Below are positions 23,086-49,079 of a stretch of 64,000 nt of DNA, piece by piece. Below the pieces are notes generated by a model. That model was not told the origin of the DNA, ran no database searches, and saw only the letters and a list, made by a program, of their open reading frames with translations. Made by a program: the position numbers and the translations under genes. The stretch is from Nitrospirota bacterium (GTDB lineage Bacteria > Nitrospirota > UBA9217): positions 640,001 through 704,000 of the forward strand of contig CAWBNQ010000001.1 in assembly GCA_963790205.1 (NCBI GenBank), read 5' to 3'. Position 1 is the first letter of the stretch. Every line of letters begins with the position of its first letter.

Positions 23086-23739
23086 TTAAGCATCAAGCGA
23101 GGTCAGGCCCGCTCGAATGGCGTATTTGGTTAGCTCGGCGATGGTGTGGATGTCGAGTTTTTTCATGATCTGCTGTCGGAACGTCTCGACGGTTTTCGCG
23201 CTTACGCTGAGTTTGGCCGCGACTTCACGGGTGCTTTTTCCTTCCGCGAGGAGCTGGAGCACCTCCCGCTCCCGGGCCGTAAGCGCGGAGAACACCGAGA
23301 GGTTCTTTTTCGGGAAGAGCTTGACGTAGTCCTTGATCATGGTGTCCGACAGTTTTGAGCTCAGGTATGCCTTCTGGGAGGACACGGCGCGGATGGCGTG
23401 TATCAGTTCTTCGAACGCGCAGTCCTTCAGCAGATAACCCGCGGCGCCGGCCTTGAACATCTCCACGATGAAGTTCCTGTCCGCGTGCATCGAGAGGGCG
23501 ATCACCTTGATGCCCGGGCTGTCCGCCGCAATCCGGCGCGTCGCGTCGATGCCGTTCAAGCCCGGCATCGAGATGTCCATGACGATGATGTGGGGCGACA
23601 GCTCGGCCGCCAGCCGCACCGCGGACCTTCCGTCTTCCGCCTCCGCAACTACGGTCATGTTCCGCTGTTCCTCGATTAAAGCGCGGAGGCCCTCGCGCAG
23701 CAGCTTATGGTCGTCGGCGAGGAGAATTCTTATGCCCAT
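23086..23739 (-). CDS. NarL/LuxR family response regulator
   Basis: ILLADDH, MDISMPGLNG, GYLLK, LTAREREVL..AEGKS HTH. Confidence 0.93.
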   Translation of the reverse strand: MGIRILLADDHKLLREGLRALIEEQRNMTVVAEAEDGRSAVRLAAELSPHIIVMDISMPGLNGIDATRRIAADSPGIKVIALSMHADRNFIVEMFKAGAAGYLLKDCAFEELIHAIRAVSSQKAYLSSKLSDTMIKDYVKLFPKKNLSVFSALTAREREVLQLLAEGKSTREVAAKLSVSAKTVETFRQQIMKKLDIHTIAELTKYAIRAGLTSLDA

Positions 23740-23765
23740 GACGTTCCTTTCCTGGTGCCTGATTT

Positions 23766-25625
23766 TTATTTGAGCGGCGTTGCCAGGACCACTTTTGTCC
23801 CGGCTCCCGGCCTGGATGCGATTTCGCAACACCCGTCTGACTGCTTCAACCGCCGGCGGATCGTGAACAGTCCGAATCCTCCGTTTTTTTCCGCGACCGT
23901 TGCCGGGTCGAACCCGATGCCGTTGTCCTCGACGGAAACTTTCATGAGCTCGCTCGTTCGTGAAATGGATATTTTCACGCTGCTCGCCTGTGAATGCTTG
24001 ACAATATTCATCAGCAGTTCGCGCACGCTCCGGAAGAGAAGGTAGCGGGTGTCGTCATCAGGCTGCCCGGTCCGGCCGTCATCCGCAACGCTGATCGGTA
24101 TCTTGTGCGTTTTTTGAAAACCTTCGGCAAGAGACTCCACGGCGGCCTGAAAGCCGATTTCAAGCAGCACGGGGGGGCTGAGTTCCACGGTTAACGATCT
24201 CGTATACTGGATGGTCTGCCGGATAAGTTCGCGGATTTCTTCCACGTGCCTGATAAGTCCCGGAGAAGGGAGCGTCTTTCGCAGCGCCGCCAGCCTGAAT
24301 TGCGTGAGCACCAGGTTCTGGCCGACAAAATCGTGAAGGTCCGCGGCGATAAGATGCCGTTCCCGCTCCTCGATCTGCGACTCCATCGATGACATTTCCA
24401 GGGCCGTCGCGCGCAGTTCCCGCTGATATGCCAGGATCTTCTCTTCCATGCCCCGGTGTTCGGTTATGTCCTGCGCGACGCCGACGTAACAGGCAGTCTG
24501 TCCCGCCTCGTCCTGCACAGGATATCCGCGGTCCCATATCAACCGGAGGGACCCCTCGGGCCGAATGATCCGGTATTCCGCCTCATATAACTGCCCGAGC
24601 CTCTTGCGCTCAAGAGCGACCAGCACCCGGTCCCTGTCTTCCCCGTGGATGGCATCGAGGAAGGACCGGGGATGTTCGTACAGGCTCTCCGGGGAACGCC
24701 CCCAAACGCGCTCGTACCCCGGGCTTACGTAGACCATCTTTGTCGTCTCGACATTGGAAATCCAAAAGACCTCTTTAATGGTTTCCGCGATCAACCTGAA
24801 GCGCTGCTCGCTTTGCCGGAGCGCGTTCTCGGCCCGCCCGCGCGCAACGACCATGGCATTGAAGGCCGAGGCGAGGTTCCCGACTTCATCGGCTGTTTCA
24901 GCCGGCGCCTGCTCGACGGGCAACCCCTTTTCGAGGGCCTTCACGCTCTGGGTCAGCTTTTTGAGCGGCCCGGTGATCTTTTTTACCGCAAGATAGATAA
25001 TGACGACACTGGAGAAGATGAAGACCAGCATGATAACGGCGTTTCGGATCAACAGCGCGAGGATTTCCTTATAATAGGAGTCCTTGCTCAAGATGACCCT
25101 TACATAGCCGATGACCTTTTCCGACCCGTTCTCGACCGCGTCGCCGAAATAAAGCGACTCATTCGCTTTTGAAACGGATTTGATCATGACGGGACTTACA
25201 ACTTCAAAGGTGCGGGCTGTTTCAAGAACGCTTGTCGGCGTGGCGGCCCCCAGGCCCAGTATGCTGTTCTCGCGGAGCGGTGAAGTTTCTTTTGCGGAAA
25301 GCGTCTTGCTTTTAGCATAGATGATTTTTAAACGGGCATTATAAATCGAGATCGAGACAACGTCCTTCAGGCCCAGAGCGCCTTCCGCGGCATTCTCCAG
25401 CATTTTCCCGTTTTCCGCGAATACCCCCACCACGGCGCCGTGGGCGAGGAGTTCGGAAAGCATTTCGCCTTGTTCTCTCAGGCCCGCCTTTGCCTTGTTG
25501 CTTTCATGGACCACGGCAAACAGCGTGAACGCCGAAAGCACGACGACGATGACGACGATGAAAGAGGCAAGCATCTTGAGGCCGAAGCTTTCTCTGAGGG
25601 AAAAACGGAATTTATTAATCATCAT
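23766..25625 (-). CDS. Membrane sensor histidine kinase (HAMP, PAS, HisKA_3)
   Basis: Two TM, DEVGNLASAFN HAMP, YVSPGYERVWG PAS, ERHLIAADLHD, EDNGIGF, GFGL. Confidence 0.9.
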   Translation of the reverse strand: MMINKFRFSLRESFGLKMLASFIVVIVVVLSAFTLFAVVHESNKAKAGLREQGEMLSELLAHGAVVGVFAENGKMLENAAEGALGLKDVVSISIYNARLKIIYAKSKTLSAKETSPLRENSILGLGAATPTSVLETARTFEVVSPVMIKSVSKANESLYFGDAVENGSEKVIGYVRVILSKDSYYKEILALLIRNAVIMLVFIFSSVVIIYLAVKKITGPLKKLTQSVKALEKGLPVEQAPAETADEVGNLASAFNAMVVARGRAENALRQSEQRFRLIAETIKEVFWISNVETTKMVYVSPGYERVWGRSPESLYEHPRSFLDAIHGEDRDRVLVALERKRLGQLYEAEYRIIRPEGSLRLIWDRGYPVQDEAGQTACYVGVAQDITEHRGMEEKILAYQRELRATALEMSSMESQIEERERHLIAADLHDFVGQNLVLTQFRLAALRKTLPSPGLIRHVEEIRELIRQTIQYTRSLTVELSPPVLLEIGFQAAVESLAEGFQKTHKIPISVADDGRTGQPDDDTRYLLFRSVRELLMNIVKHSQASSVKISISRTSELMKVSVEDNGIGFDPATVAEKNGGFGLFTIRRRLKQSDGCCEIASRPGAGTKVVLATPLK

Positions 25626-26556
25626 TTCCCGCCTTTTTGATGATATCATCCCTGATCTTGAGGCCCATCTTCGCCGCCACCTTTGAGTTGACCGCGAGGT
25701 GCGACGCGCGCGCCCACACGCGAATTGCGCCCGTCTTGCCCGTTGACAGCTTGTTGACGATTTCGCCGGCCTGGGCCCCCATATCGTAAGGGTCCACATC
25801 CAGGGCCGCCACCGCGCCCATCTCGACATATTTTTTGGAAAAGGAGAAGATCGGCACGCTGTTCTGAAAGGAAAAATGAAGCAGATAGTCCACCGCTTCG
25901 GCCGCGGCGATGGTCTCATCGGGGACCATCCAGAAAATGTCTACGGTACCGCGCATCTTGTCCAAAAGACCGGGTATTTCGCGGGGGTCCCGCACCTGTT
26001 TGTCCACCAGCTCAAGGCCTGCGGCACGCGCGGCCGCTGCCGCTTCTGCCACGAACGCCGCGGTGTGCCGCGGGTCGTACAAGAGCCCGATTTTCTTCGC
26101 CTTGGGAAACAGTTCCTTCATCGTGGATATATAGGTCTCGGGGGAGATGTCCATGCTCACTCCCGACATGTTGGGGCGCAGTGAGAGAGCGGCCTCCGAC
26201 GGCATCACCATGGCGTAGACCACCGGCAGGCCTTCAAGCGCCCTCACTTTTTTAAAAGCGGTCGTTCCGATAGCGAAGACCGCATCGGGCGACTCCTGAA
26301 GGACCGCCCCGCTCCCCTCGTTTTCCTCCAGCGTTAATTCCTGCGCGTCACATTTGCAGGCGTCTCTGAAGCCCCGGAGCGCGTCTTGATACGGCCTTAA
26401 CTCGGCGCTTTTAACGACGATTACCTTGAATGCATCAGCGGAAAAGGGAAAAAAAGCGGTGAGCGCGGAAAGCGCACCAAGAGCGAAGAGAAAAACTAAA
26501 GTGCGCGATCGAATATTTCGGCAGAGGGGGTACATAAATGGCACGTGGGCTCTCAT
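25615..26556 (-). CDS. ABC-type substrate-binding protein with no adjacent permease (sensor partner)
   Basis: Signal-like N-terminus, KKIGLLYDP, GAVAAL..DPYDMGAQAG, VNSKVAAKMG; overlaps the kinase start. Confidence 0.8.
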   Translation of the reverse strand: MRAHVPFMYPLCRNIRSRTLVFLFALGALSALTAFFPFSADAFKVIVVKSAELRPYQDALRGFRDACKCDAQELTLEENEGSGAVLQESPDAVFAIGTTAFKKVRALEGLPVVYAMVMPSEAALSLRPNMSGVSMDISPETYISTMKELFPKAKKIGLLYDPRHTAAFVAEAAAAARAAGLELVDKQVRDPREIPGLLDKMRGTVDIFWMVPDETIAAAEAVDYLLHFSFQNSVPIFSFSKKYVEMGAVAALDVDPYDMGAQAGEIVNKLSTGKTGAIRVWARASHLAVNSKVAAKMGLKIRDDIIKKAGNDD

Positions 26557-26566
26557 GTCCGTTGCG

Positions 26567-27856
26567 CTACAAATCGTATTTGATGTCCTGGGCCACAAAT
26601 TGGGCAAGCGTTTTGTCGAAATACTCTTTGCGGCAATTAATTCCGCGCATAGTGTCGTCATGCAGCAGTTTCATGTAACCGCAGCCTCCGAAGCAGAGCG
26701 GCAGGTACGCGCACGCAAGGCATTTTTTGTTCTTCCATTTTCCGACCTGATGTGTCTTCTGGTAGTCATGTATTCCCGTTTTGAGGGAGCCCGCGCAGTA
26801 TCTTTTTCTCCCCACCAGACCCGGGCATTTATACAATGTCCCGTCGTAGTTCACGACGAGATTGTCCCGCTGCTCCACGGCGCAGACCGAGGGCACGAGC
26901 TTCTGCGTGGAAAAACCGCGCTTCAGTATTTCCTCACGGAGATAGAGGCTTGCAGCGCGAAGCCATGGTTCAGTTACGGAGCTGCAGCCGTCATGAAAAT
27001 CAGGCATCGCAAATTTTTTGCTCTCTTGAAAGACAGGAGCGAATTCAACAGAAGCAATTTTATCAGGACCGAGACCATTCCTGAGCAGATAATCAAGCAG
27101 CCCGGGAAATTCCCGGTAACGCTCCCGCGTATAATTGCCGCCGATATGCACATCAATCAAAGAGCAGACGTTCTTGATGTTTCTGACGATCGTATCGAAT
27201 GAGCCCGTGCCGGCCCTGAAGGGCCGGAACAGGTCGTGAAGTTCTTTGGATCCATCGAGGGTGGTGCTCGCGGACCTGAGGCCGAACGGTTTTAATTTTT
27301 TAACTATCTGAGGTGTAAGCAGCGTGCCGTTCGTGGTCAGGGTAAAGCTGAAGGCTATCCCTTGCTTTTGCGCAAGGGCTCGGATGTCTTTTGATATTCG
27401 GACGATCGTATCCATGCTCAGAAGCGGTTCGCCGCCGTAAAAGACAAGATTGATCTCTTGTTGGTTTTTAATGATGCCGGACTTTATAAAATCAACGAAA
27501 TCACCCGCTGTTTCCTCGGACAGGTAATGCTTGCCTTTTCTCTTGCCCTCGTAGCAGTACGTGCACCCGAGATTGCAGTCGAGGTTAAGTATTATGATGG
27601 CGGTGAACGTTTCATTTTCTGCGTTCAGCTCATCAACGTACCCGAGCAGTTCACGCGATTCAGCCTCGCGGCTCTTCACGAGAAAACCGAGTTCCGTCAG
27701 CGTTTTTTTCTCATTCTTCGGCAACCGGCCTTTTTCTATATCCTGAAGAACTGCCGGCGTGACTTCCACGGCTGCCATTGTCACGGTTGAAAAAAGCGTG
27801 ACCTTTTTCGGGTCATCGGGTAAGCGATATATTTTACAATATCGTGAAAGTGGCAT
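26567..27856 (-). CDS. Radical SAM/SPASM peptide maturase (geopeptide-maturase-like)
   Basis: CNLGCTYC, FYGGEPLL, TTNGTLL, SPASM C..YKC..CLACAYLPLCFGGC; N-terminal extension may be an RRE. Confidence 0.88.
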   Translation of the reverse strand: MPLSRYCKIYRLPDDPKKVTLFSTVTMAAVEVTPAVLQDIEKGRLPKNEKKTLTELGFLVKSREAESRELLGYVDELNAENETFTAIIILNLDCNLGCTYCYEGKRKGKHYLSEETAGDFVDFIKSGIIKNQQEINLVFYGGEPLLSMDTIVRISKDIRALAQKQGIAFSFTLTTNGTLLTPQIVKKLKPFGLRSASTTLDGSKELHDLFRPFRAGTGSFDTIVRNIKNVCSLIDVHIGGNYTRERYREFPGLLDYLLRNGLGPDKIASVEFAPVFQESKKFAMPDFHDGCSSVTEPWLRAASLYLREEILKRGFSTQKLVPSVCAVEQRDNLVVNYDGTLYKCPGLVGRKRYCAGSLKTGIHDYQKTHQVGKWKNKKCLACAYLPLCFGGCGYMKLLHDDTMRGINCRKEYFDKTLAQFVAQDIKYDL

Positions 27857-27887
27857 GGTTGTTCAACGAATAACGGGGTAAAACCAT

Positions 27888-27912
27888 GAGGGAGAGCAAT
27901 GCGCTCTCCCTC
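27888..27912 (-). terminator. Stem-loop between precursor and maturase genes
   Basis: Perfect 10-bp stem gagggagagc / gctctccctc with 5-nt loop. Confidence 0.65.
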
Positions 27913-27922
27913 TTTGAGATTA

Positions 27923-28084
27923 TCACCTGCCCGGCCTATAAATACCGGCGGTACAGCATACTAGCTCCGGATTAACAGCCATCTTTTTAGTTGCCTTCTT
28001 CTTGGCGGCTTTCTTCTTAGTGGTTTTTTTCTTGGCAGCCTTCTTCTTGGATCCTTTTTTCTTGATTGTGATGCGTTTTGCCAT
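27923..28084 (-). CDS. RiPP precursor peptide, 53 aa, geopeptide-like with Lys-rich repeat
   Basis: GGAGGTGAGG RBS; MAKRITIKKKGS-(KKKxx)4-KKMAVNPELVCCTAGIYRPGR; directly upstream of the radical SAM gene. Confidence 0.8.
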   Translation of the reverse strand: MAKRITIKKKGSKKKAAKKKTTKKKAAKKKATKKMAVNPELVCCTAGIYRPGR

Positions 28085-28144
28085 AATCCTCACCTCCCCC
28101 TTTTGTGAATTGGCCCGCTCGAGCATGCATTGCTTCAATTTCAC

Positions 28145-30043
28145 TCAGAAGTTATACCGTAGTCCCCCCTCGAACCACCGTTTCGGGTTCTTGTATCTCT
28201 CATCTTCATACTGATCGCCGTTGAACAGATTATGCACATCGGCAAAAGCTTCGAGCGAGGCATCTTTATGCTGCAATATCTTTTTTATCATATGCAGATC
28301 GAAAACAAAGGAACCATAGCTTGCATTCAAGCCCCAGGAGGAGTCTATGTTCCAGTCGATATAGCGGCCGTTCAACAAAGCCTTGAAAGATTGCTGATCA
28401 TCGTAGTGGAGCCCGAGGTCGTAGATACGCGTCGGCTGGAATTTCAATCTCGTGTCAGTATTCAGGTCTTGAGCATCTACATATTCTGTACCCGCGGTCA
28501 GGAAGGTATTGTACACGGGCGCTGTCTTTACTTCGAAATCGACGCCCCTGCGTCTTTGCCTGTTTCCATTTACAAACATTTGCTTAGCAGGATCAACCGG
28601 AGAAGTTTCGATAGTAAAGCCATCACGGATCTCATTCCAGAACACCGAGACCTTCGTCCAGAGGTATTTCAATGAAGCAGTCTCCACCCCTGCCTGATAC
28701 GAATAGACCTTCTCCATTTTCAGATCCGGATTAGGAGTATAAAAAATATTATCTGTATAAGCAAACCCGAGCGGCGGATTGGTGAAGCCCTTTGCAGTGT
28801 AGAGTCTCACTATGGTGCTGCTCCCGACATTGTAAGCAAGCCCCAGGCTTGGGCTGGTGATTGCGTTGTTTGAGTTTGTGCGGTCGTATCGCACGCCGGG
28901 GGTAATGGAGAGCCTGTTCAACAATATGGTATCGTTCGCGTAAACGGCCCATTTCCTTAATTCCCTTTCACCTCCGTCAACCTGCGTCGAATCGAATGTT
29001 CTAGCATCCGCATCCACACCGAAAATAATCGTCTGTGATTCATTCCTCCAGGTTAGTTTGGCGCTCGATCCGTAACTTTTGTCAGTAGTATGTTCGCCTT
29101 GAACTATTACGCCGGAAAAATCGTCTTCAAATACCTGGCGGAGTGATCGAATTGACACGTTCAGGTCCAGATTCTGAGTAAGGCTCGAATTCAGGGCAAC
29201 CGTGGCATGCTGGATGCTCTGAGCATCATCCTCGGATATATCGGTCGACGGGAAAAACGTGGCAAATCCGACTCCCCTGCGGCTCTTTTCATACCCCAAG
29301 GCAAAGAGCACGTTCGTTTTGTCAGTGAGATCATAGGTCAGCTTCGTATAGACATTGTCTCCGTTGACGTGAAAATTCGGCAGCAAGCCATCCGTCTGCA
29401 GCCTCCCCGCGGCCAGATAATAACCGAACCCGTCCTGCTTGCCCCGCGCCTCTGCGCGAAAATCCTCCGTGCTCCTGCTGCCGTAAGACGCGGAGAGCAT
29501 TCCGCCCTGATTGTTTGCCGTGCCCGCCTTGGTGATGATGTTCACCACACCCCCAAGGGCCGAACCCCAGGCTGAAGAAGCGGGGCCTTTGATGATCTCC
29601 AGCTTCTCGATGTTCTGCACCGGGATCAACGCCACATCGACGCTGTTGTCGGCGAGATCGTTTAATACGACCCCGTCGATGATAACGGTCACCTGTTGGG
29701 CATCCGAACCCTGAATAAAAGCATTCGCCCGGGTGACGGGGTCTCCAAGCATAAACATCTGGACCCCGGTGACCGTGTTCAGGACCTCAGCGAGCGTATG
29801 AGCGTTCATGAGCTCGATATCCGAGGCCGTAACGACCGTGATGTTCTCGGCAGTCTTGGAAACAGGCTTCGGGCTCCTGGTGGGTGTTTCCACCACGAGC
29901 TCTTCCTCCTTGAAATACATCAGGAGGAAATTTTTTTCTTCATCGGATTGAGCGAAAACGGGAGAAGGGTTCGAAAGGAGATGGAGCGCAAATAGGGAAA
30001 GAGAAAGAATGGCAATTGTTATGAGGTCCCGTTTATTCGGCAT
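28145..30043 (-). CDS. TonB-dependent outer membrane receptor
   Basis: Signal peptide, plug motif IEKLEIIKGPASSAWGSALGGVVNIITK, NPDLKME, C-terminal RYNF. Confidence 0.93.
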   Translation of the reverse strand: MPNKRDLITIAILSLSLFALHLLSNPSPVFAQSDEEKNFLLMYFKEEELVVETPTRSPKPVSKTAENITVVTASDIELMNAHTLAEVLNTVTGVQMFMLGDPVTRANAFIQGSDAQQVTVIIDGVVLNDLADNSVDVALIPVQNIEKLEIIKGPASSAWGSALGGVVNIITKAGTANNQGGMLSASYGSRSTEDFRAEARGKQDGFGYYLAAGRLQTDGLLPNFHVNGDNVYTKLTYDLTDKTNVLFALGYEKSRRGVGFATFFPSTDISEDDAQSIQHATVALNSSLTQNLDLNVSIRSLRQVFEDDFSGVIVQGEHTTDKSYGSSAKLTWRNESQTIIFGVDADARTFDSTQVDGGERELRKWAVYANDTILLNRLSITPGVRYDRTNSNNAITSPSLGLAYNVGSSTIVRLYTAKGFTNPPLGFAYTDNIFYTPNPDLKMEKVYSYQAGVETASLKYLWTKVSVFWNEIRDGFTIETSPVDPAKQMFVNGNRQRRRGVDFEVKTAPVYNTFLTAGTEYVDAQDLNTDTRLKFQPTRIYDLGLHYDDQQSFKALLNGRYIDWNIDSSWGLNASYGSFVFDLHMIKKILQHKDASLEAFADVHNLFNGDQYEDERYKNPKRWFEGGLRYNF

Positions 30044-34672: not shown

Positions 34673-34852
34673 CGGTTTCTGCTCTTCCGAGGCTTACTCC
34701 ATTTCAGACACTACGTTATATATGGGTAGAGCATGAGGTTAGATTCTCCCATTAAAGTATAGGGAAAATTATCTTCAAGACTACCCAAAATAGAAACCTC
34801 CTGCTAAGAATAAGTTTATAGCGAAACTAAATTCTTGTGGCAGGAGGTTCCT

Positions 34853-36160
34853 ATGAATTATGTAGATGATATCAGACTTGAGCAGTTTCTTCAACTGAAG
34901 AAAGAAATTCGCGGTTCGGAAAAGCATTTGATCGTCGGCATTGACGCGGCCAAGGAGAAGCACAACGCTTTTTTCGGTACGGCACGCGGAAAAACGCTGG
35001 TTAAGAATCTGGTCTTTGACAACACGCTTGAAGGCTTTCAAAAGCTGCTCGCCTATGTCGAGCGAATCAAAGTTCAATATAGCCTGACCACGGTCGTTTT
35101 CGGAATCGAGCCGACGGCGAACTATCACAAGCCCCTGGCGGAGCATCTGATCAAGTGCGGGCACATGGTCGTTCTCGTGGGAGGCGTCGCGGTCAAGAAC
35201 AACCGGCAGCTTCTGGACGGCCGCTGGGACAAACATGACGTCAAAGACGCGGCAAACGTCGCAGATCTTATCGCCCAGGGGAAGTGCCTGTTTTACGAAT
35301 ACCCCCTGATGACACTGCGGAACGTGCGCGTCCTGATCGCACTCAAACGGCGTTTAAAGAGAAGGGAACACGGCATGAGCGTATGTGTTCGCAATCACCT
35401 CATCGCGCAGTATTTCCCCGAGTTGGACCAACACTACGGCCCATCGGAAACCCTGACGGTGGTAAGGGAATGTCTTGACCCCTCGGAGATCGCCGGCATG
35501 GAATACGATGCCTTCTGCCGCACCGTCGCGCCGGGCAAAATGACGCTGGCGAAGGGCCGCAGGGTGGGAATGATCTGGAGGGCCGCGGTTGATTCCATCG
35601 GCTGCACTATGGGAGAAGCGGCGTCTTTCGAAGCTCAAGTCATGGTGGACGGCCTGAAGCAGATCAGGCAAACCATCAAGTCGGTGGAGGAAAAACTCGA
35701 AGATGCCTGCATGGAATTTCCGGAGTACACCTACTTGCTGAGCATTCCGGGGTTCGGACCGGATGTTTCCTCAAAGGTGCTTGGGGCCATTGGAAATCCA
35801 CGCCGCTTTACGAGCGCCAAGCAGGTATTGAAAATGGCAGGCCTCGACCTGTGCGCGGATCGAAGTGGCAAGAAGTCCACCAGCGCGATACCGGTCATCT
35901 CCAAGCAAGGCAAGGCCGATCTCCGCTACGGACTGTATCAGGCGGCATTTATCGCCTCGCTTAAGAACAAGGACTTTATCACCTACTTTACGAACAAGCT
36001 CAAGGGCCGGGCAAAGGAGAAAGGCATCGTCACAAAGATGCGCGTCAAGCTGGCCGCGAAGCTCCTGGTTATCGCTTGGACGCTGATGAAAAAAAAAGAA
36101 TGCTTTGATCCGAAATATCTCAAACAGGAGGATGAGGCCGCGAATAAAAAAGCGGCATGA
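34853..36160 (+). CDS. IS110 family transposase/recombinase
   Basis: DEDD tetrad VGID / IEPT / KHDVKDA; SIPGFG and RSGK C-terminal motifs; AGGAGG RBS. Confidence 0.93.
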   Translation: MNYVDDIRLEQFLQLKKEIRGSEKHLIVGIDAAKEKHNAFFGTARGKTLVKNLVFDNTLEGFQKLLAYVERIKVQYSLTTVVFGIEPTANYHKPLAEHLIKCGHMVVLVGGVAVKNNRQLLDGRWDKHDVKDAANVADLIAQGKCLFYEYPLMTLRNVRVLIALKRRLKRREHGMSVCVRNHLIAQYFPELDQHYGPSETLTVVRECLDPSEIAGMEYDAFCRTVAPGKMTLAKGRRVGMIWRAAVDSIGCTMGEAASFEAQVMVDGLKQIRQTIKSVEEKLEDACMEFPEYTYLLSIPGFGPDVSSKVLGAIGNPRRFTSAKQVLKMAGLDLCADRSGKKSTSAIPVISKQGKADLRYGLYQAAFIASLKNKDFITYFTNKLKGRAKEKGIVTKMRVKLAAKLLVIAWTLMKKKECFDPKYLKQEDEAANKKAA

Positions 36161-36164
36161 TCCG

Positions 36165-36440
36165 TGAAACGTAAAAAACCAATTTCGGCGAGAGAGCCCG
36201 GGACACTACGTTGAGGCTACGACCTCGGTGGGGACAATACAGGACCTCTCGTTTGAACGATAGAATCTGGATAAGGTATTCTGGGCGGCCAAACTGAAAG
36301 CGCGGCATGCCGAATAGGCTGTAACGATTAGAGTTATCGTTCGTCTGGATGCGAGAGACTCGCCGATCAAAGCGATGCTGGCAGGAATGCCGGGAGGAAA
36401 GCTGCGTCTTCAATCGACGCAGAAAACCATCTGATTGAAA
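36165..36440 (+). ncRNA. Putative bridge/seek RNA of the IS110 element (ends approximate)
   Basis: Loop segment GACACTACGTT (36202-36212) is identical to the left junction 34707-34717; enclosed by cgagag/ctctcg stem. Confidence 0.7.
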
Positions 36441-36698
36441 ATTATGAAAACTAAACTGTCACTTGACGGGAGCGTTATAGTATGTCCTCAAGATTCTGCT
36501 ATCACAGCAGACCTTAGCAGGCACACCTTTTCCGACTAAGCAACACGTCACCACTCACCGTTAACAAAGATTACTTCACCGAAGCATTACCCTAAATGTC
36601 GAAGCGTCTCGACCATCCTCCTGCCGCTACGGGCTTCTTGAACACTGGATTGGGTACGATGTGAAAATGTCGTCTCAATCCTTAAAGGTTAGGCCTCG

Positions 36699-37130
36699 CT
36701 ACCTTCCGGCGATAGTCCATGCTGCAAACACGAGCAGTGCTCCAAATCCAACAACAAAGCCACCGACTTGGATTGTGTCGGCGACCTTTCGCCGCCAATT
36801 GAGTTTCCAACGCCACTCCTTGGCAGACTTTTTCTCATAGTCGAGACCCCAGGAGATGTAGTACTGAGCCCAGAGTCGCATATGAAATATTCCTGCGATC
36901 GTCGAGATCGCTAGCGCAGCCCATCCTGCTAAGAGTGCAGCCTTCATAGCTGCAGAGATCGGACTACTGCCAAGGATATCCTTGGTGAACGTAACGGAAA
37001 AGACGAATGCGCCGGCCGCAATTGACATCAAATGCTTGATGTACTCGATTCTGTAGTTGTTCCCTAGGCCAATATCCAGATGGGCTTCTGAGAGCGTTCG
37101 ATTATCTGTTTCATGTGTTTTCTCGTTCAT
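36699..37130 (-). CDS. Small membrane protein (about 3 TM), hypothetical
   Basis: Three hydrophobic segments; GCCTAAC shortly after the stop codon. Confidence 0.7.
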   Translation of the reverse strand: MNEKTHETDNRTLSEAHLDIGLGNNYRIEYIKHLMSIAAGAFVFSVTFTKDILGSSPISAAMKAALLAGWAALAISTIAGIFHMRLWAQYYISWGLDYEKKSAKEWRWKLNWRRKVADTIQVGGFVVGFGALLVFAAWTIAGR

Positions 37131-37170
37131 CAGAGACTCTCCTTTAAATGTGCTGGCGGCACAGATGTGA

Positions 37171-37221
37171 GGCAACACGCGCGTGAACCGCAAGCATTTC
37201 GCGGCGACGCGCAGGTTGGGC
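37171..37221 (-). other. Degenerate attC-like site
   Basis: Minus strand GCCCAAC-ct-gcgcgt-cg-ccgc...gcgg-ttc-acgcgc-gt-GTT. Confidence 0.5.
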
Positions 37222-37254
37222 CATATTGGCCGTCTATTGACGGCGCTTGTCCTC

Positions 37255-38172
37255 TTATGGAAGCTTATTCTTTAGCAGCTGCGAGCGGATATGTTTCATT
37301 ATATGAGCCTGATGCGAAATGATATTGTCATTAGAACGCTTGAACACGTCACCAAACTTAGTCCCTTGGTTTTTCTGAAGACGGGCCTCGTCTGAAAACA
37401 AACATTCTTTAGAAGAACTAACGTAATTGCACAACCATGTCAATTTTGAAGACAACGGAGTTTCTGCTGCAATCATCTTATCGCTCGCCGTTTCCTGCAA
37501 GATGTTATCAATTTCATCAGCTAAATAAAAGTCACCAGCGATTGGATCGTAACCGAGATAATCAACAAAATATAGACCATCGGTATCAACACATACCATG
37601 TGAGCTATGCGATTTTTTATGAGTATAGGTATCTTTGGAATAGGGTCTGAAAGTAAAATTTTAATTAATTCGTCGTCAATTACTGCCCGGGGGTACAAAG
37701 CGGCCCTGGATTCAATGCGGTAAGCTTTGACTAAAGCTTCTCCTAAGACCATATCTCTCTTGTGAAATAAACGGCCACAAGAGATGCCGCCTCGCGTACG
37801 AACTCCTAGGCTTAGAAGACCCCTTTGTAACCAAAAAACCGATTGAAGACAACGTAATATTGGGACGACTCTACTATTCAAAGAATACTCGTTATCTCTT
37901 TCACGTTCAGGGAAAGACATCGTTATTGCATCAGAAAGCAATGTAATCTTGTCATACGCACCGAATGGCTTATCAAACTGTATTTGAACTTCTTTGCCAG
38001 TTCGCACATGGGGCAGTGAAAAAAATACTTCTTTTTTACTTCCTACTAAAGCGGAAAACAAACTATATATTGCTTGGGCATAATTTTCAGATTGATCTGT
38101 TGCAAGCATCTGGTCAGATATTCCAAGAACATCGATAAATGCTACATACCTATTTTTGTATTGCAGGTGCAT
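37255..38172 (-). CDS. Divergent class III nucleotidyl-cyclase-like protein
   Basis: YVAFIDVLG and LLSDAI (two metal-binding Asp), RGGISCG, LGEALVKAYRIE, YPRAVID. Confidence 0.6.
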   Translation of the reverse strand: MHLQYKNRYVAFIDVLGISDQMLATDQSENYAQAIYSLFSALVGSKKEVFFSLPHVRTGKEVQIQFDKPFGAYDKITLLSDAITMSFPERERDNEYSLNSRVVPILRCLQSVFWLQRGLLSLGVRTRGGISCGRLFHKRDMVLGEALVKAYRIESRAALYPRAVIDDELIKILLSDPIPKIPILIKNRIAHMVCVDTDGLYFVDYLGYDPIAGDFYLADEIDNILQETASDKMIAAETPLSSKLTWLCNYVSSSKECLFSDEARLQKNQGTKFGDVFKRSNDNIISHQAHIMKHIRSQLLKNKLP

Positions 38173-38241
38173 TCAATCACTTTTTAGACAATCAAATTAA
38201 ATTAAGAAATCTTTCGTAGCGTTGGAAGTTTCTATCAGATG

Positions 38242-38871
38242 TTAGGTCGGTTTTTTATCAATACCGTGCTTTTCATATACCTTCGATTTTTCCGGCTGTG
38301 CCCAGTGGGTATGAGGAAACGTCGGGATTTCCCGATCGAATTCTTTCAACAATTCTTTTCTTGCATCAGCCCAAAGCGCAAAGATTTTATCTCTCACAAT
38401 TTTTCCATCATCAGTTGTGATTTGCTTGTTATATCCCAAATCACTTATCAAACGGAGTATATCCTTGACCGGTTCAAATGGATAAAGACCGATTTTGTTA
38501 TCAGTTTCACCCAAGTTCATGAAGACACCCCGAACCTCTTCAATAGCAGCACTGAGACTACAAAGAGTTTCACTATACTGTTCCTTAGTAGGGTACTCGA
38601 TATGAGTATACTGACTTGCTGTCTGGACCGCCTTCACTAAGGTGCTCCACAAAAGCCGCAATTGCTGCATATAGCTTGAGCGTCGTTGCAAACAATAGCC
38701 AAGCCAAGCTGCGGGAATAGCAATTATAAATGGAATCATGTCCTTATACGTTGAATAGATCACAGAGTTAGTTGTTTTGTCATATAATCGAAGCGATATG
38801 CCCAAAGCAACTGCCGTAAGGTAAATAACGCTGGCTACGAAGAACCACCTGAATAATTGTCTTTTTGTCAT
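38242..38871 (-). CDS. Hypothetical protein with two N-terminal TM helices
   Basis: 209-aa ORF; stop codon lies inside ACCTAAC. Confidence 0.7.
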   Translation of the reverse strand: MTKRQLFRWFFVASVIYLTAVALGISLRLYDKTTNSVIYSTYKDMIPFIIAIPAAWLGYCLQRRSSYMQQLRLLWSTLVKAVQTASQYTHIEYPTKEQYSETLCSLSAAIEEVRGVFMNLGETDNKIGLYPFEPVKDILRLISDLGYNKQITTDDGKIVRDKIFALWADARKELLKEFDREIPTFPHTHWAQPEKSKVYEKHGIDKKPT

Positions 38872-39238
38872 ATTCTATTTTTTACGCTCGAATTAAAGGC
38901 ACAGCTGGGCCGCCCCAGTTGCCACGCTTTCATATTTTCGAAAGAACATCTTATTGACTATTATGAACCAGCCATCTATAGGGATATAGAGCTATCTACC
39001 GGTATATACTTTTCGAGGTTTGCTTATTTCACGAACCAGATCCCGGAGGAACCGATCCGCTACCATATCGTACAATGCCACGAATATATGCCGAATCCCG
39101 TGGCATGTCAATCGCCCGAGATGGATATAGAGGGGTAGCAGCCAATCAATTCCACTTGTAGTATTGGAATTTCGCGGACCCGTAACTAAAACAAGTGCAG
39201 AAAGAATTCTTCGAGATGTAGAAAAGGTTTATTCTGTA

Positions 39239-39823
39239 TTAATGCTTCTTTGTAGAATGCTCTTGCCGGTTTATAATTTCCTCAGAGCTTATAAACATAT
39301 AACCTTGATTCAAAACTTTGTTATATTCCATTACGATGTTGGTCGCATTTGTAAACCAGTAATATTTATTCTTCAATTTATTCGGTTTGTCCGGCCTGCC
39401 ATATTTATGAGCTGTGACCTTCTTGAGTTTATTGAAATTGTCATATCCTGCAAATTTTATATCCACATCGGATAGTTTATTTTGCCAAAATCCATATTGA
39501 ATGCTTGTAAGTGTTACCCCTCCGACTTCAAGTGGATCGTCTTTTCTAGAATAAAACTTGACTCCTCCGTAGCTGGGATCTGTTCTGGGATGGATCATCA
39601 CGTCTTTTACCAAAGAAAAATCAGTACCCCAACTAATGCCTCTGAACCCCTCCGCCTCTTCGGATATGCCTTTCGTTGAGGATGCAAATGATAACGCAAT
39701 CACTATGATAAAAATCGCTACCCGTTTTATAACAACCTCGCTTTTATTACGAATGGTAAAAGCAATAGTCTTGGCCAGATTAATCTCCGGAATAACTATC
39801 CAAATCGGGCGAAACAGGGCCAC
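39239..39823 (-). CDS. Hypothetical exported protein
   Basis: Signal-like segment followed by EGFRGISWG; start uncertain. Confidence 0.6.
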   Translation of the reverse strand: MALFRPIWIVIPEINLAKTIAFTIRNKSEVVIKRVAIFIIVIALSFASSTKGISEEAEGFRGISWGTDFSLVKDVMIHPRTDPSYGGVKFYSRKDDPLEVGGVTLTSIQYGFWQNKLSDVDIKFAGYDNFNKLKKVTAHKYGRPDKPNKLKNKYYWFTNATNIVMEYNKVLNQGYMFISSEEIINRQEHSTKKH

Positions 39824-39849
39824 TTATCTACCGAATATGCAGTTGAGTC

Positions 39850-40401
39850 TCATCTGGGAACGCATCTCTCTGACAAGCGGCGTAAATCAGCAGAGTAACA
39901 AGCTGGAAACAATACACATAGTTGTTCAAACGTCACAGCATTAAGACTTCCTGCAATTGCACGAGCACGATAAGCTGCAGGAAAGGTACCCCCAGGAAGC
40001 GCACGAGTCAATTGAAGCGCCTCAAGGTAATTTCCAGATTGAGGGACTTGAGCAGCAAGGCCGTATAGGCCTTGCGCGTAAATAGAAAACTCAACGGCGA
40101 CCCCTTCCTCAAGGAAGTTCGTGTTGCTTACAGTCGGATTTAATAAGTGAATCGTCTCGTGAGCCATTTCGTACACGACGGTAGGCCAATAGATTTTGCT
40201 AGTCGGGCTGAGCTCAGCAAACGCACCATCGAGCGTAGGTGTATTGCGTAGATGAGGTCCGTTGTCGTGAAAAACGGGTTGATAGATTGTTTTCGTTCGG
40301 TCACGTTCGCCGAGAAGTTTTTCGGCCAGTGTCAGCAGTTCTTGCTGTAAAGCCCAAAGGCCTGGATAGTCATGTTCCGGAATCGAGGTGGGTAGTTGCA
40401 T
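39850..40401 (-). CDS. HExxH metallopeptidase-like protein
   Basis: EMAHETIHLL ... LEEGVA. Confidence 0.6.
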   Translation of the reverse strand: MQLPTSIPEHDYPGLWALQQELLTLAEKLLGERDRTKTIYQPVFHDNGPHLRNTPTLDGAFAELSPTSKIYWPTVVYEMAHETIHLLNPTVSNTNFLEEGVAVEFSIYAQGLYGLAAQVPQSGNYLEALQLTRALPGGTFPAAYRARAIAGSLNAVTFEQLCVLFPACYSADLRRLSERCVPR

Positions 40402-40444
40402 ATTGAGCTATCGTTATCGCTTTTCTGAGTTCAGGTTGGGGCAA

Positions 40445-41488
40445 CTAAATATTTTCCCCGTAGTATTGCTTGTAAACATCTTTAAAGATGAGCGGGAAAT
40501 TACTCGTGAATTCTCTAAAACCTTCGCTATTATCCTGGTACTCATAGTGTCTCAGATGTTTAAAGTCAAAGGGAATGTCAGATATATCCTGAGTAAGGAG
40601 GATTGCAGGTTTTCCGATGGCATGAACAATTCCTACTTCGTACAGGACATTCGGATTTTTTGCTGTCAAATCAGCAACAATAATTGCGCATTGGTTTATT
40701 TTAGTCCATATATCCTCAATGATAATAGGTCCGTTCAAATTATCCGCACGTAGGCATTGAAATCCGAGTGCTTCAACATTTTCTCTTATCAACTCTTTGT
40801 AGACATGATCGGACCATTCCTTTTTAAAAGGCATCAATACGAAGCAAAGTCTCGGATCTATTTGTTCAATCTTCGTTCTAAAAATTGGATGCGGTTTATT
40901 TGAGGATGAATTATCTTCGGCTGAATATCCTAACGGATTTGCTACGGGTCTTACTTTTGGTGATGATTCTCTTTGGTGATTAATTATCAACTGCTCGATG
41001 TCTCGATATTTTATATATTCGTCGAAAACCTCATTTCCGTCTAGGGCAAATTTGGCAATGCCGCCGTAATTAGTGAGTGAATATGAAGTAGATGTGAAAC
41101 TGCCAAGTCCACTAATGAATCGCAGGATAACCTCAACTTCATATTTGTCAATGCCAGACTGTGTTGATATCTCTTCTGATGATATTTCTCTCAGCTCCGG
41201 ATTTTTAAATAGGAAGTCTTTTATGAGCAGAATGACCTTATGTGTTTTTTCTATTAAATCTGTTTCCGGATCTAAATGCCATATACCTAGAAGGGTTAAT
41301 CTGTCTTCTCCTTCTAGCAATCGTCTGTCAATCTGATAGGGATTAAAGTCGTCAGGTATTTTTCCGAGTAATTCAATCTTTAAACTTCTATGGCCTGCCT
41401 TTTCTCGTGTCTTAAATTTTGTATATATCGCTCCAAGCCACGCTTTAGCGTCATCGGTAATTTCTATTTTAGGAAAATTATAGGGCAT
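40445..41488 (-). CDS. Protein with a C-terminal nucleoside 2-deoxyribosyltransferase/TIR-like domain
   Basis: CFVLMPF, RAD, VADLTAKNPNVLYEVGIVHAIGKP, IPFDF. Confidence 0.7.
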   Translation of the reverse strand: MPYNFPKIEITDDAKAWLGAIYTKFKTREKAGHRSLKIELLGKIPDDFNPYQIDRRLLEGEDRLTLLGIWHLDPETDLIEKTHKVILLIKDFLFKNPELREISSEEISTQSGIDKYEVEVILRFISGLGSFTSTSYSLTNYGGIAKFALDGNEVFDEYIKYRDIEQLIINHQRESSPKVRPVANPLGYSAEDNSSSNKPHPIFRTKIEQIDPRLCFVLMPFKKEWSDHVYKELIRENVEALGFQCLRADNLNGPIIIEDIWTKINQCAIIVADLTAKNPNVLYEVGIVHAIGKPAILLTQDISDIPFDFKHLRHYEYQDNSEGFREFTSNFPLIFKDVYKQYYGENI

Positions 41489-41597
41489 GGAGATTCCATT
41501 GCTATTTAACGGTTGCTCGCGACTTTGTCGAGTCCGTTATAGTTGATATTTCCAACTGTCTACATGACTAGACTGTCTTCACTCTGCCGGCAGTCTG

Positions 41598-42779
41598 TCA
41601 ATTTATCGAAAAAACCTCATGCAATAGTGATTGAAATAAATGTTCTGCCTGTCGTAATGATTCCACCTGTGTCGTATGCAGACCTTCGTGGTTCCGAATG
41701 CCCTCAACATATTTTATTTGCAGCGGCATCGGGGGCAGTGGAATCCGTAATTCGGACAAGGTTGATGTGTTCATGAAAGTGTACGCATCTTCTTGCCCGG
41801 TCTTTAACTTACCAATTTTTGAAGCAAAATAGGTCATCAGTATCACGAAATATTCGGGCAAGCACTTTGTCGGATCAAGAGAAAGTCTAATAGTGTTACT
41901 GTGAATGATGGACTTCTCATAGCTGGTCTTAACTATAGCCATTCTTCCGACAGTTCCAGCACGCGATACGATGATATCACCGTTCCTAACCGTGTAAGCT
42001 TTAAGCTCCTCATATTTTTGGGGAGTAATGTAAAAACATTTGTCCTCGCGGAATTCGTTCGCACCCACGCAGTCCACCGTCCATACCGGGATGCCGCTTG
42101 AAACATATTCATCCTTCTTAAGGGCGCTACCAAATGGACCACATTTTACACCATCTTTATTGTTAGGGAACAATTCTTCAACCTGATAAAGAGAATAGTT
42201 GTTTGGATTGTGAAAGGGATCGCCAAAAAATTTCAGGAAAACTGATGGAAGCACTGTATCATTAATGTCCAGAGCATATCGGCGCATTTGTCTCAAATTG
42301 TCGGCACTTTTTAACATCTCAGCTATAAGCTTTTGCTCAGGCATATCGCGATAGGGTATTTCAACAGCCTCCATAATTTCTTTTGTGACCTCGTCAAAAG
42401 TTGCTCCTCTCCCTTTATTGACGATGGCAGGTGTCAAATATTTAAGCGCGAAGTATCCGTAAAGTGGATTGAGATATTTATTTGGAATAATATTTTTGAA
42501 ACCTTGATTTGTACAAAGCGGGAAGGCAGTAACGGCACAATGTCCGATTGGCGCTCGGCTACTAAACAAAATGGTTCCTGTCGGTAGCATTTTTAAAGAA
42601 CAGCTGTCATATCCTTTTTTTGATATTTTTTTTAATGCTCCGTGAAAATATATTTTGTCATTCGATGATAAATCCGCGGGTGTTACCCATGGGATATCAC
42701 CATTCCAATATTTTGGCTCGTTAGTTCTAGGCGTAGATCCAGAGACTATTTTACCGAGCTCACTTAGAGGCTTTATCAT
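41598..42779 (-). CDS. hsdS: Type I R-M specificity subunit
   Basis: SGSTP, SSRAPIG, TNQGF, GPFGS, IPLPPMPLQ; two TRDs. Confidence 0.9.
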   Translation of the reverse strand: MIKPLSELGKIVSGSTPRTNEPKYWNGDIPWVTPADLSSNDKIYFHGALKKISKKGYDSCSLKMLPTGTILFSSRAPIGHCAVTAFPLCTNQGFKNIIPNKYLNPLYGYFALKYLTPAIVNKGRGATFDEVTKEIMEAVEIPYRDMPEQKLIAEMLKSADNLRQMRRYALDINDTVLPSVFLKFFGDPFHNPNNYSLYQVEELFPNNKDGVKCGPFGSALKKDEYVSSGIPVWTVDCVGANEFREDKCFYITPQKYEELKAYTVRNGDIIVSRAGTVGRMAIVKTSYEKSIIHSNTIRLSLDPTKCLPEYFVILMTYFASKIGKLKTGQEDAYTFMNTSTLSELRIPLPPMPLQIKYVEGIRNHEGLHTTQVESLRQAEHLFQSLLHEVFSIN

Positions 42780-44493: not shown

Positions 44494-44501
44494 TACTCTC
44501 C

Positions 44502-47291: not shown

Positions 47292-47772
47292 CTAATAAGC
47301 ACTTACACGCTCAGTTTTCCGCGATAAGATCGTGGAATTGCACGATAGTCATCCAGCTGAAGTTTCTAAGCAGCTCACCGGCCGCGATGGAGAGGGAGTC
47401 GGCCAGGTTCTTGAGATCGCTGAATTGAGTCTAGTCGCAGTCGATCCGGAATATGATAACTTTTGCCGAATAGTTGCAAAGATTATCCGCAAACGACGCA
47501 GATATTTGTCACCGACCGACTTTACTACAGATCGTTACAAAAGTCCAGAATATGATGGGTATTTTGGTGGGAGCAAGTGCAGAGGAGGTATGATGCCGTT
47601 TAAAGATTATAAAGCTCAAATCATGACCGCAAGTCAGCTTCCGAATAAATCTCGTATTCTATTCTAACCAGCAAATCAAACATAGTATGTATCCCGGCAA
47701 AAGTGCTCATAAAGCGTTGCGGAGTTTTATCACCTAGTGCCTTGATCAAGGTACTCATCCCTTTGCAGAATC

Positions 47773-48012
47773 TTAAACGGGATCATTGATATTACTGGCG
47801 CTTTCAATACTTTTAATAAATCGGATAACGAACTGATGAAAAGGCAAACCATCAACTTCACCGATTTTGCCCGTAATTTTAGCGACATATTTGTCACGGT
47901 CTGCTCGTACACTTGCGACAACATCTCCATAGTTGATAGACAGGCTCATATTTGCCGTAGGATCGATAGGGTTGCTTGCTTTGCCAGTTTCACTTTTTGC
48001 CTTACGGTGCAT
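47773..48012 (-). CDS. Small hypothetical protein divergent from the XRE regulator
   Basis: GAGGAG RBS before ATG; 79 aa. Confidence 0.45.
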   Translation of the reverse strand: MHRKAKSETGKASNPIDPTANMSLSINYGDVVASVRADRDKYVAKITGKIGEVDGLPFHQFVIRFIKSIESASNINDPV

Positions 48013-48180
48013 TTAATTCTCCTCTCGCTACCATTTATAAAACTGATACTCGCGAATTGCGATTCGCAGAACGTGTGTCTTAAGTCTACATTATATGACG
48101 GATTTGTCAATATTTTTCTATTTTTGATGTTGTGTTAAAAACCTCCTTGAAAGTTAATGATAACAAAACTTGGAGGACGC

Positions 48181-48504
48181 ATGAAACCGACAACGAAGAA
48201 GCTGCTGGGGGCAAGAATCAAAGAGCTGCGTAAATCAAGAGGCTTCTCGCAAGACGAGCTCGCGGAAAAAGTAGATATCGACGCCAAACACATGAGCCGC
48301 ATCGAAGTAGGTGGCAGCTACCCCTCCCTGGATACTTTGGACCGGATTGCCAAGGCACTCGGCGTCGAACTAAAAGATTTTTTCGATATAGTTCATGAAT
48401 CAAAGAGAGCCGATCTCATACGAGCAATAATGAGCTTGATCAAAGATGCTGACGATGCCCAATTGAAACTCCTCGTCAAAATTGCTCGCGCCACTGTACG
48501 CTAG
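48181..48504 (+). CDS. XRE family HTH regulator (C-protein-like)
   Basis: LGARIKELRKSRGFSQDELAE..SRIEVG..PSLDTL; GGAGG RBS. Confidence 0.9.
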   Translation: MKPTTKKLLGARIKELRKSRGFSQDELAEKVDIDAKHMSRIEVGGSYPSLDTLDRIAKALGVELKDFFDIVHESKRADLIRAIMSLIKDADDAQLKLLVKIARATVR

Positions 48505-48582
48505 TTTCAGGCAGACGAATTAAATCTCTCTAGTCCGCGGCGGGAGTCTCTGACTCAGTGCATGCTAGACTTTTCGCAAAGA

Positions 48583-49059: not shown

Positions 49060-49079
49060 TCGAGTTTCTCCTTGTATCG

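Follow-up and report, generated by a model that had tools for sequence, protein, structure and literature searches.

The window analysed here is a stretch of 64,000 nucleotides from a Nitrospirota bacterium (GenBank assembly GCA_963790205.1, contig CAWBNQ010000001.1), in which positions 23086..30043 hold a cassette of six co-directional minus-strand genes, every one of which was confirmed as real (Table 1). Reading from receptor to regulator, the genes are separated by gaps of 60, 66 and 10 nt, an 11-nt overlap and a gap of 26 nt. The tight same-strand packing described in an earlier sequence-only reading stands, although its gap sizes of 61, 67, 11 and 27 nt were each one nucleotide too large. 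That reading also held the cassette to be free of permease, exporter, immunity and protease genes, which is correct for the first three; as for a protease, an FtsH gene on the opposite strand begins at a distance of 2.3 kb, and this gene is absent from the recurrent neighbours at 80 related loci surveyed.

Table 1. Features of the cassette, with positions in the window.
Feature	Position	Strand	Basis
TonB-dependent receptor ('clade A'), 632 aa	28145..30043	-	Plug and barrel domains exceed cut-off (Pfam PF07715 and PF00593); signal peptide hydrophobic, last residue Phe
Receptor N-terminal segment, about residues 32-49, aromatic LMYF core	29897..29950	-	Conserved, precedes TonB-box-like strand; predicted partner-docking site
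Shine-Dalgarno site of precursor gene, GGAGGT	28092..28097	-	Sequence inspection
Precursor peptide, 53 aa	27923..28084	-	Leader motif, Lys-rich insert, Cys43-Cys44, 9-residue tail
15/30-nt tandem repeat encoding histone-H1-like Lys/Ala/Thr insert	27976..28064	-	Repeat analysis
RNA hairpin in precursor/maturase gap	27888..27912	-	Folding against shuffles
Geopeptide radical SAM/SPASM maturase (family by profile), 429 aa	26567..27856	-	TIGR04280, 570 bits
Periplasmic PF04392 binding protein, 313 aa, no adjoining ABC permease	25615..26556	-	Pfam; N-terminal hydrophobic stretch
Sensor histidine kinase, 619 aa	23766..25625	-	Pfam; two membrane helices, periplasmic sCache_4, HAMP, PAS, HisKA_3 (His431), HATPase
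NarL/GacA-type response regulator, 217 aa	23086..23739	-	Receiver-GerE domains

The maturase scores 570 bits against TIGR04280 (cut-off 400) across residues 1-427, and by database profile it is likely to be a geopeptide radical SAM/SPASM enzyme that would modify the precursor. The geopeptide identity proposed for the pair from the letters alone is upheld for the enzyme; the precursor fails TIGR04229. In terms of the database system (TIGR04280, a hypothetical equivalog, together with TIGR04229), the enzyme passes its cut-off over the whole length, whereas the window precursor lies outside its model and has a basic leader and a Lys-rich insert. The CxxxCxxC motif (positions 94, 98 and 101) and seven SPASM cysteines (325, 344, 379, 382, 388, 392 and 408) provide ten cysteines that are invariant in 94/94 maturases, 85 of which have an additional Cys291 that could fill the open iron site used by thioether-forming enzymes. 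A predicted model (pLDDT 90.6) begins with three strands followed by three helices, forming an RRE-like domain, and the enzyme carries all of the features that define an RRE-dependent radical SAM/SPASM maturase: CxxxCxxC, a seven-Cys SPASM domain and an N-terminal RRE. The nearest solved structure is CteB (5WGG/5WHY), which matches the fold over the whole length (E 4e-32, TM about 0.68), and the RRE, radical SAM core, SPASM domain and Cys-containing precursor are all shared with the CteB/SCIFF ranthipeptides. Sequence identity to CteB is, however, about 21%, the SCIFF-maturase profile gives 100 bits against a cut-off of 425, the precursor has two cysteines compared to six in the clostridial SCIFFs, and the extra Cys291 may complete the ligation of the first auxiliary cluster, as happens in SuiB and anSME, unlike in CteB. 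SCIFFs are entered as quorum-sensing related in a table of one review (PMC8326336).

The window precursor gives no match to TIGR04229 even at E 10 (membership cut-off 30 bits), and its short-form Nitrospirota relatives reach at most 13 bits, but peptides in the same position pass the model at three of six tested loci (L180, 40.5 bits; L189, 32.5 bits; L183, 30.0 bits). Like those members that pass, which are the source of this criterion rather than the text of the model itself, the window precursor has a leader strand and a CC pair near the C-terminus, and its gene lies directly upstream of the TIGR04280 enzyme. In its own genome it is the top hit of a profile built from family precursors, the alignment being split in two. 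As judged from these features, the predicted precursor is a Cys-Cys geopeptide relative bearing a Lys-rich, histone-H1-like insert; the H1-like profile match of the insert is weak (E 0.11, far under cut-off). Lysine accounts for 18 of the 53 residues, arranged as a tandem repeat, and in the window lineage leader and core are kept apart by a polycationic spacer of about 20-30 residues, so that leader motif and CC lie 31-39 residues apart in long forms with a matched motif versus 8-11 in short forms. No hydrophobic signal stretch was found in the precursor sequence. The CC pair is invariant in a precursor set for which it was itself the selection criterion, while the tail varies (entropy 2.4-3.7 bits per position), ranges from aromatic to basic to acidic, and diverges fast: the window enzyme is 77% identical to that of locus L064, yet only one of eight tail positions is. 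Such a variable, fast-diverging tail is easier to square with a signal than with a cofactor. Between precursor and enzyme genes, the hairpin has a z-score of -3.7 (0/200 shuffles as stable), and z is at or below -2 at 83/92 related loci when mononucleotide shuffles are used; this structure likely sets the ratio of precursor to enzyme transcript, as far as folding predictions indicate.

Leader charge opposes RRE charge across the family (raw rho -0.61), with contrasts giving r -0.45 (p 0.003, n 41) and r -0.22 (p 0.058, n 73) and a control on the catalytic domain giving +0.13. Moreover, a charge swap at RRE position 55 agrees at 67/74 loci, which represent only four independent pairs (p about 0.25). 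The idea that a more acidic enzyme matches the Lys-rich leader was rejected; enzymes paired with such leaders are more basic.

The gene linkage was surveyed at 101 related loci, with counts taken over scorable loci. The receptor adjoins the enzyme at 94/95 loci and a CC peptide does so at 91/97, which indicates that the precursor call is not due to chance; a binding protein is present beside the enzyme at 60/64 and a kinase at 55/64. Loci L115, L182, L184 and L067 yielded no precursor. Peptide, maturase and one receptor clade are thus tightly linked across two phyla, in support of the earlier reading. The enzyme is encoded in 20/57 genomes of the window's Nitrospirota family and in 58/69 of a second, Geobacteraceae-type family, where the receptor lies within 6 kb of 74/77 enzymes. 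An alignment-based scan of GTDB species genomes gave 443 matching stretches, whereas a single-protein scan of these genomes gave no match. On the question of whether such triads of receptor, binding protein and kinase mostly occur apart from the peptide pair, the answer depends on the clade. Within clade A they do not: 22/22 receptor loci in the window's family and 73/117 in the Geobacteraceae-type family carry the enzyme; for the other 44, some of which sit at the end of a contig, none lies within 5 kb. In a distant receptor clade with the same arrangement, they do, the enzyme being found at 0/18 loci, so the triad appears to be a general sensing module that is not peptide-specific by design. 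Among 20 of the 44 enzyme-less loci that were examined, the binding protein is kept in 19 and the enzyme or precursor in none; 37 of the 44 receptor-only triads occur in genomes carrying the enzyme elsewhere, and these triads are nested within peptide-linked lineages (seven changes, outgroup counted).

The receptor scores below cut-off for all listed named TonB receptor families; its nearest solved relatives are BtuB and Cir, and from residue 50 onward it aligns with BtuB from residue 8, which we take to be the TonB-box region. Ahead of this point, a YfiR-type N-terminal motif, in patterns defined after the sequences had been inspected, is seen in 18/19 YfiR-linked receptors versus 0/86 PF04392-linked receptors. 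There are five motif/partner changes on a plug-barrel tree, and five of five independent pairs agree (p 0.0625). That the motif tracks the type of periplasmic partner suggests that the receptor N-terminal segment is a docking site for that partner, and docking could transmit a signal whether or not the peptide is handed over. This motif-partner correspondence is new in this analysis.

The nearest solved structures to the PF04392 binding protein are 3LKV, 3LFT and 6HNI. Kinase and regulator pairing varies among loci, being either HisKA_3 with a LuxR-type regulator or HisKA with a sigma-54 activator. Binding protein and kinase are absent at L085 and L092 and replaced by YfiR at L070 and L095, but the receptor remains with precursor and enzyme at all four. 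A relay of this general layout is known from Cycloclasticus, where a signal passes along the TonB receptor PahS, PahP and PahK through pairwise binding (PMC10570129). In that system, PahS and PahK each bind PahP, the regulator PahR is GacA-like and no transporter role is assigned, in parallel to the cassette, which has the same clustering of TonB receptor, permease-less periplasmic binding protein and membrane kinase. The Pah system differs in its external hydrocarbon ligand, its unlinked regulator and its lack of peptide genes. The likeness of PahP to the PF04392 protein is drawn at the level of role; a term search of the paper and its supplement found no family assignment for PahP. Pseudomonas YfiB/YfiR/YfiN offers a second parallel, in that an outer-membrane protein sequesters the periplasmic controller of an inner-membrane signalling enzyme, and YfiR stands in for the PF04392 protein in two geopeptide loci; YfiB, however, is a lipoprotein rather than a TonB receptor, and the output is c-di-GMP, with no peptide involved (PMC4655355).

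A dedicated processing or export gene, as expected of peptide quorum sensing, was not found at the locus, nor was a conserved exporter or protease found among recurrent neighbours at the 80 related loci. Only five of these 80 have an MFS fragment (188 aa) after the enzyme, and the window locus has none. Elsewhere in the genome there are TldD/E-type and TonB genes and two C39-type peptidase matches, in frames of 210 and 248 aa that are too short to be a fused exporter. Upstream, there is no excess of Fur boxes (0/79 loci) by an E. coli-type consensus that may not suit these phyla, and sigma-54 sites occur at 2/79 loci versus 0-2 in shuffles; no conserved sigma-54 site being present, positive feedback is unsupported.

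We consider there to be about an even chance that a self-made modified peptide is sensed across the envelope by way of the TonB receptor, periplasmic protein, kinase and regulator. This proposal builds on what is directly observed, namely the gene identities, their linkage, the leader motif, the invariant CC and the variable tail. The leader strand would bind the maturase RRE, and the enzyme would cross-link one or both cysteines, for which thioether formation is the closest precedent. Proteases and exporters of general function, with genes elsewhere in the genome, would free the product, and the released tail would be the signal, binding the TonB receptor at the cell surface. Before its arrival the PF04392 protein would sit on the receptor N-terminal segment; ligand and TonB engagement would then move it to the kinase sCache domain, whether or not its cleft holds the peptide, and His431 would phosphorylate the NarL-type regulator. 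No robust covariation was found between tail charge or hydrophobicity and receptor or binding-protein properties (one of eight contrasts at nominal p 0.016). A fuller version, which we offer tentatively and regard as the less probable outcome, would make the product a widespread pheromone of two-membrane anaerobes: a cross-linked CC peptide with strain-specific tails, sensed at the surface by its own TonB receptor clade, in which the receptor N-terminal segment binds and lets go of an interchangeable PF04392 or YfiR partner that gates the kinase, receptor-only copies are eavesdroppers and peptide-free triads follow the same docking rule.

The persistence of triads without the peptide pair (44/117 clade A receptors, 18/18 in the distant clade) could also mean that an unrelated molecule from outside is what the triad detects, the modified peptide being the regulated output, like the streptococcal radical SAM peptides under shp/rgg, of which about 600 clusters lie under a separate quorum operon (PMC9389541). 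PahS/P/K likewise detects an outside chemical (PMC10570129). An output would need the regulator and not the receptor, yet the receptor nearly always stays (94/95), in contrast to the kinase type and the regulator, which differ between loci or, as at L085 and L092, are absent, and we think this arrangement rather unlikely. If the peptide left the cell through the receptor, and binding protein and kinase monitored its passage across the outer membrane, this would account for both the lack of an exporter and the tight linkage of receptor to peptide. TonB-type exporters exist, but passage across the inner membrane is left unsolved, and same-clade receptors retain the binding protein and the kinase at loci that have no peptide to export; such an exit role strikes us as highly improbable.

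Two further readings give the product a function other than signalling. Methanobactin is the model of a re-imported metal chelator, and a vicinal Cys pair, a TonB receptor whose nearest solved relatives are BtuB and Cir, and a periplasmic binding protein could likewise serve a chelator or cofactor taken back as a nutrient, with the kinase reporting loading. The marks of metallophore uptake, a Fur-type box or riboswitch and an inner-membrane permease, were, however, not found: neither permease nor exporter is among the recurrent neighbours, there is no Fur-box excess, the window stretch has no Rfam riboswitch, and the tail varies among aromatic, basic and acidic forms, making this quite unlikely. 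Fast-changing tails, patchy occurrence in the window's family (20/57 genomes) and Lys-rich expansions with at least three independent origins would suit a toxin of narrow range, or a kin-discrimination factor, entering neighbours via the receptor clade, its polycationic variants targeting membranes or DNA. Nevertheless, immunity or export genes are never recurrent, the producer itself encodes the receptor, and the cassette, found in 58/69 genomes of the second family, is common enough there to suggest a core role instead; we give a toxin very little credence.

The enzyme family is already named by databases, and the Lys-rich CC precursor, as far as its sequence tells, is a variant of the geopeptide kind. 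Widespread as the enzyme is in the two families and across GTDB, a literature search on the geopeptide family, TIGR04280 and TIGR04229, covering few subscription papers, found no study; the term matches listed include no hit to either TIGR number and appear to be unrelated words (e.g. gageopeptide). What the enzyme does at the two neighbouring cysteines may likewise be novel chemistry. The motif-partner rule provides a simple, testable mechanism for a common and unexplained gene trio, and predicts that a swap of about 15 residues would switch the partner. If the proposed circuit is true, these anaerobes would possess a peptide signal that is read across the outer membrane.

The six minus-strand genes described in the sequence-only reading are present as stated. 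In cassette order, the first three gaps are 60, 66 and 10 nt, the fourth and fifth genes overlap by 11 nt, and 26 nt separate the fifth from the sixth. Their products, in the same order, are a TonB-dependent receptor, a peptide of 53 aa, a radical SAM/SPASM enzyme, a periplasmic protein of family PF04392, a kinase with two helices and sCache_4-HAMP-PAS-HisKA_3 domains, and a NarL-type regulator; the closest relatives bearing a name are from Nitrospirota. A strong Shine-Dalgarno site precedes the peptide gene and a hairpin lies on its 3' side; an equivalent hairpin (z ≤ -2) is seen in 83 of 92 related loci. The cassette is genuine and conserved. Its enzyme scores 570 bits against the geopeptide maturase profile TIGR04280 (cut-off 400), bearing out the proposed geopeptide-type assignment. 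The precursor does not pass the corresponding profile TIGR04229, which is passed by 3 of the 6 Geobacteraceae-type peptides tested. Judged by the enzyme profile, this is a geopeptide system whose precursor is a variant.

Locations of features in the window and in related loci
Feature	Location	Strand	Observation
Six-gene cassette	window, 23086-30043	minus	
Transposase-like frame	window, 34835-36160		Low-GC part starts past this frame
Low-GC stretch, likely an island	window, 36000-54000		GC 0.38-0.47 versus about 0.55
Second receptor and PF04392 pair, distant clade	L049:9194-12201 (window's genome, G000:C1, about 109,200-112,200)		No kinase, peptide or enzyme found alongside
Precursor/maturase tandem repeats (L186)	G132:C1:2264000-2282000		Two enzymes, at least three CC peptides with differing tails, one receptor ahead
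Second same-clade receptor directly 3' of maturase	L090:3328-5244		No binding protein found in this locus

Linkage was surveyed over 101 distinct loci drawn from the best 80 of 443 GTDB matches, 20 loci chosen, with long contigs favoured, from 79 matches in the Geobacteraceae-type family of the L100 genome, two further loci and the window. Counting only loci with sufficient flank, and tallying L186 by hand, the enzyme is accompanied by a receptor in 94 of 95, a precursor in 91 of 97, a binding protein in 60 of 64 and a kinase in 55 of 64 of these mutually related, and hence not independent, loci; the kinase figure is a lower bound, since BLAST overlooked the L180 kinase, which Pfam then confirmed. 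Among the six loci where no precursor was called, L061 has one broken by Ns and L112 has a longer frame ending in CC. L182, L184 and L115 have a receptor and an intact maturase with no precursor detected nearby; the L182 and L184 genomes contain one further maturase locus each. Throughout the Geobacteraceae-type family, a receptor lies within 6 kb of the enzyme in 74 of 77 enzyme loci. Gene order, kinase type and regulator type all vary across the survey. ATP synthase genes adjoin the cassette in L078, L080, L082, L086, L089, L098, L104, L108 and L129, and also the distant-clade receptor pair of the window's genome.

Seen from the receptor, the outcome is divided. The sequence-only reading took as its refuter the occurrence of most receptor-binding protein-kinase triads without the peptide/radical SAM pair. 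This is not the case for same-clade receptors in the window's family (57 genomes), where an adjacent enzyme is found at 22 of 22 receptor loci (receptor matches at E ≤ 1e-60), one enzyme gene containing stops. It is the case for a distant clade, about 24% identical, in which a PF04392 protein lies alongside in 18 loci and a kinase next in 14, and no enzyme was found in the 18 (sample of 20 loci from 51 matches, plus L049). Receptor and enzyme are missing from two close binding-protein/kinase pairs, of which L130 sits at the end of its contig and L131 lies on a long one. Among 117 same-clade receptor matches in 69 Geobacteraceae-type genomes, the enzyme lies within 5 kb in 73 and not in 44, 37 of the latter being in genomes carrying the enzyme elsewhere. 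Binding protein is kept at 19 of 20 orphan receptors examined, and neither enzyme nor precursor was found at these 20 loci. On a FastTree receptor tree rooted on the distant clade, with a long outgroup branch and 35 of 94 inner branches weak, orphans fall at several points within peptide-linked lineages, a placement consistent with loss or duplication. The receptor, binding protein and kinase thus form a general module, with same-clade receptors linked to the peptide mostly, not exclusively.

Precursors of 93 of 103 loci combine a hydrophobic leader strand with a CC pair, mostly some 10 residues further on, and a high-entropy tail of 7-14 residues; that of L100 is a CWWC-type variant. The L196 precursor, directly upstream of its maturase, has a single Cys and no CC, and could reveal which Cys is essential. 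Most Geobacteraceae-type loci have acidic leaders and most Nitrospirota loci basic ones, with RRE charge opposite (contrasts, r -0.45, p 0.003, n = 41; tree made without the RRE, r -0.22, p 0.058, n = 73; control, +0.13). Because these charges run opposite, they suggest that the maturase binds the leader strand. The window precursor contains 18 Lys, with a 15/30-nt tandem repeat placed between leader motif and CC. On the enzyme tree (FastTree), Lys-rich expansions require 3 changes if defined loosely and 5 if defined strictly, and the window falls in a supported group of six, all with the expansion; in some other lineages the repeat, on reading the precursors by eye, seemingly precedes the leader motif. 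We read the insert as a tolerated spacer, gained repeatedly; binding to DNA or to membranes is conceivable. Compensation by more acidic enzymes was ruled out, enzymes of Lys-rich lineages being no more acidic.

P0034 is a 742-aa maturase fused to domains of methyltransferase type, and L086 has a methyltransferase-like frame between maturase and binding protein; extra tailoring is possible in both. The predicted structure of the window maturase (pLDDT 90.6) has an RRE-like element at its start, and CteB is its best match in sequence and fold alike. Ten Cys are shared by all 94 relatives compared, 85 of which also retain Cys291. The auxiliary iron site is open in thioether-forming CteB and fully ligated in SuiB and anSME, according to a review (PMC8326336), so with Cys291 as a possible ligand, thioether formation is only one candidate chemistry.

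Before a TonB-box-like strand, the receptors have a short conserved segment with an aromatic core (LMYF-type). In L070 and L095 the PF04392 gene is missing, a YfiR gene sits 2-6 kb ahead of the receptor on its upstream side (confirmed by Pfam in L070; in L095 it seems to be split and was assigned via BLAST clustering), and the receptors have a different, leucine-rich segment. A YfiR set of 20 loci, from 25 matches in 121 genomes of the phylum, has the receptor upstream at 17. Among 105 receptors, near-full and with either partner, the leucine motif occurs in 18 of 19 YfiR-linked versus 0 of 86 PF04392-linked receptors, and the aromatic motif in 78 of 86 PF04392-linked versus 0 of 19 YfiR-linked, with patterns defined after the data were seen. 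On a tree of the plug and barrel only, motif and partner type each change five times, and they match in 5 of 5 independent pairs (p 0.0625, the lowest value that five pairs can give). We infer that the segment binds the periplasmic partner. The closest solved PF04392 proteins, 3LKV, 3LFT and 6HNI, presumably bind aromatic amino acids; if so, the aromatic motif may fill the binding-protein cleft.

No recurrent exporter or protease was found in 80 related loci. In 5 of the 80 (L119, L120, L121, L124 and L127) a half-length MFS gene, a fragment of about 188 aa, directly follows the maturase and is a candidate exporter for a single sub-lineage. The regions upstream of 79 receptors showed no excess of Fur boxes or sigma-54 sites, the window gave no Rfam match, and tail properties did not clearly track those of receptor or binding protein. 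A literature search, its coverage mostly outside subscription journals, found no papers on the geopeptide family.

The main rival, that the peptide is a regulated output, has its model in streptococcal radical SAM peptides, which answer to a quorum system of separate make-up according to a review (PMC9389541). The same review describes a Parabacteroides-type cluster, as yet uncharacterised, in which a TonB receptor and two-component genes occur together with a peptidase-ABC exporter that the window cassette lacks. We rank this output reading next, and consider it rather unlikely. In Cycloclasticus, as PMC10570129 describes, the genes for PahS (a TonB receptor), PahP (periplasmic) and PahK (a kinase) adjoin one another; SPR, two-hybrid and FRET show PahP binding to PahS and to PahK, and it moves from receptor to kinase in the presence of ligand. 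By its architecture the window cassette would work in a similar way. The best reading, which we hold at about even confidence, is that the organism would make its own peptide signal and relay it across the envelope.
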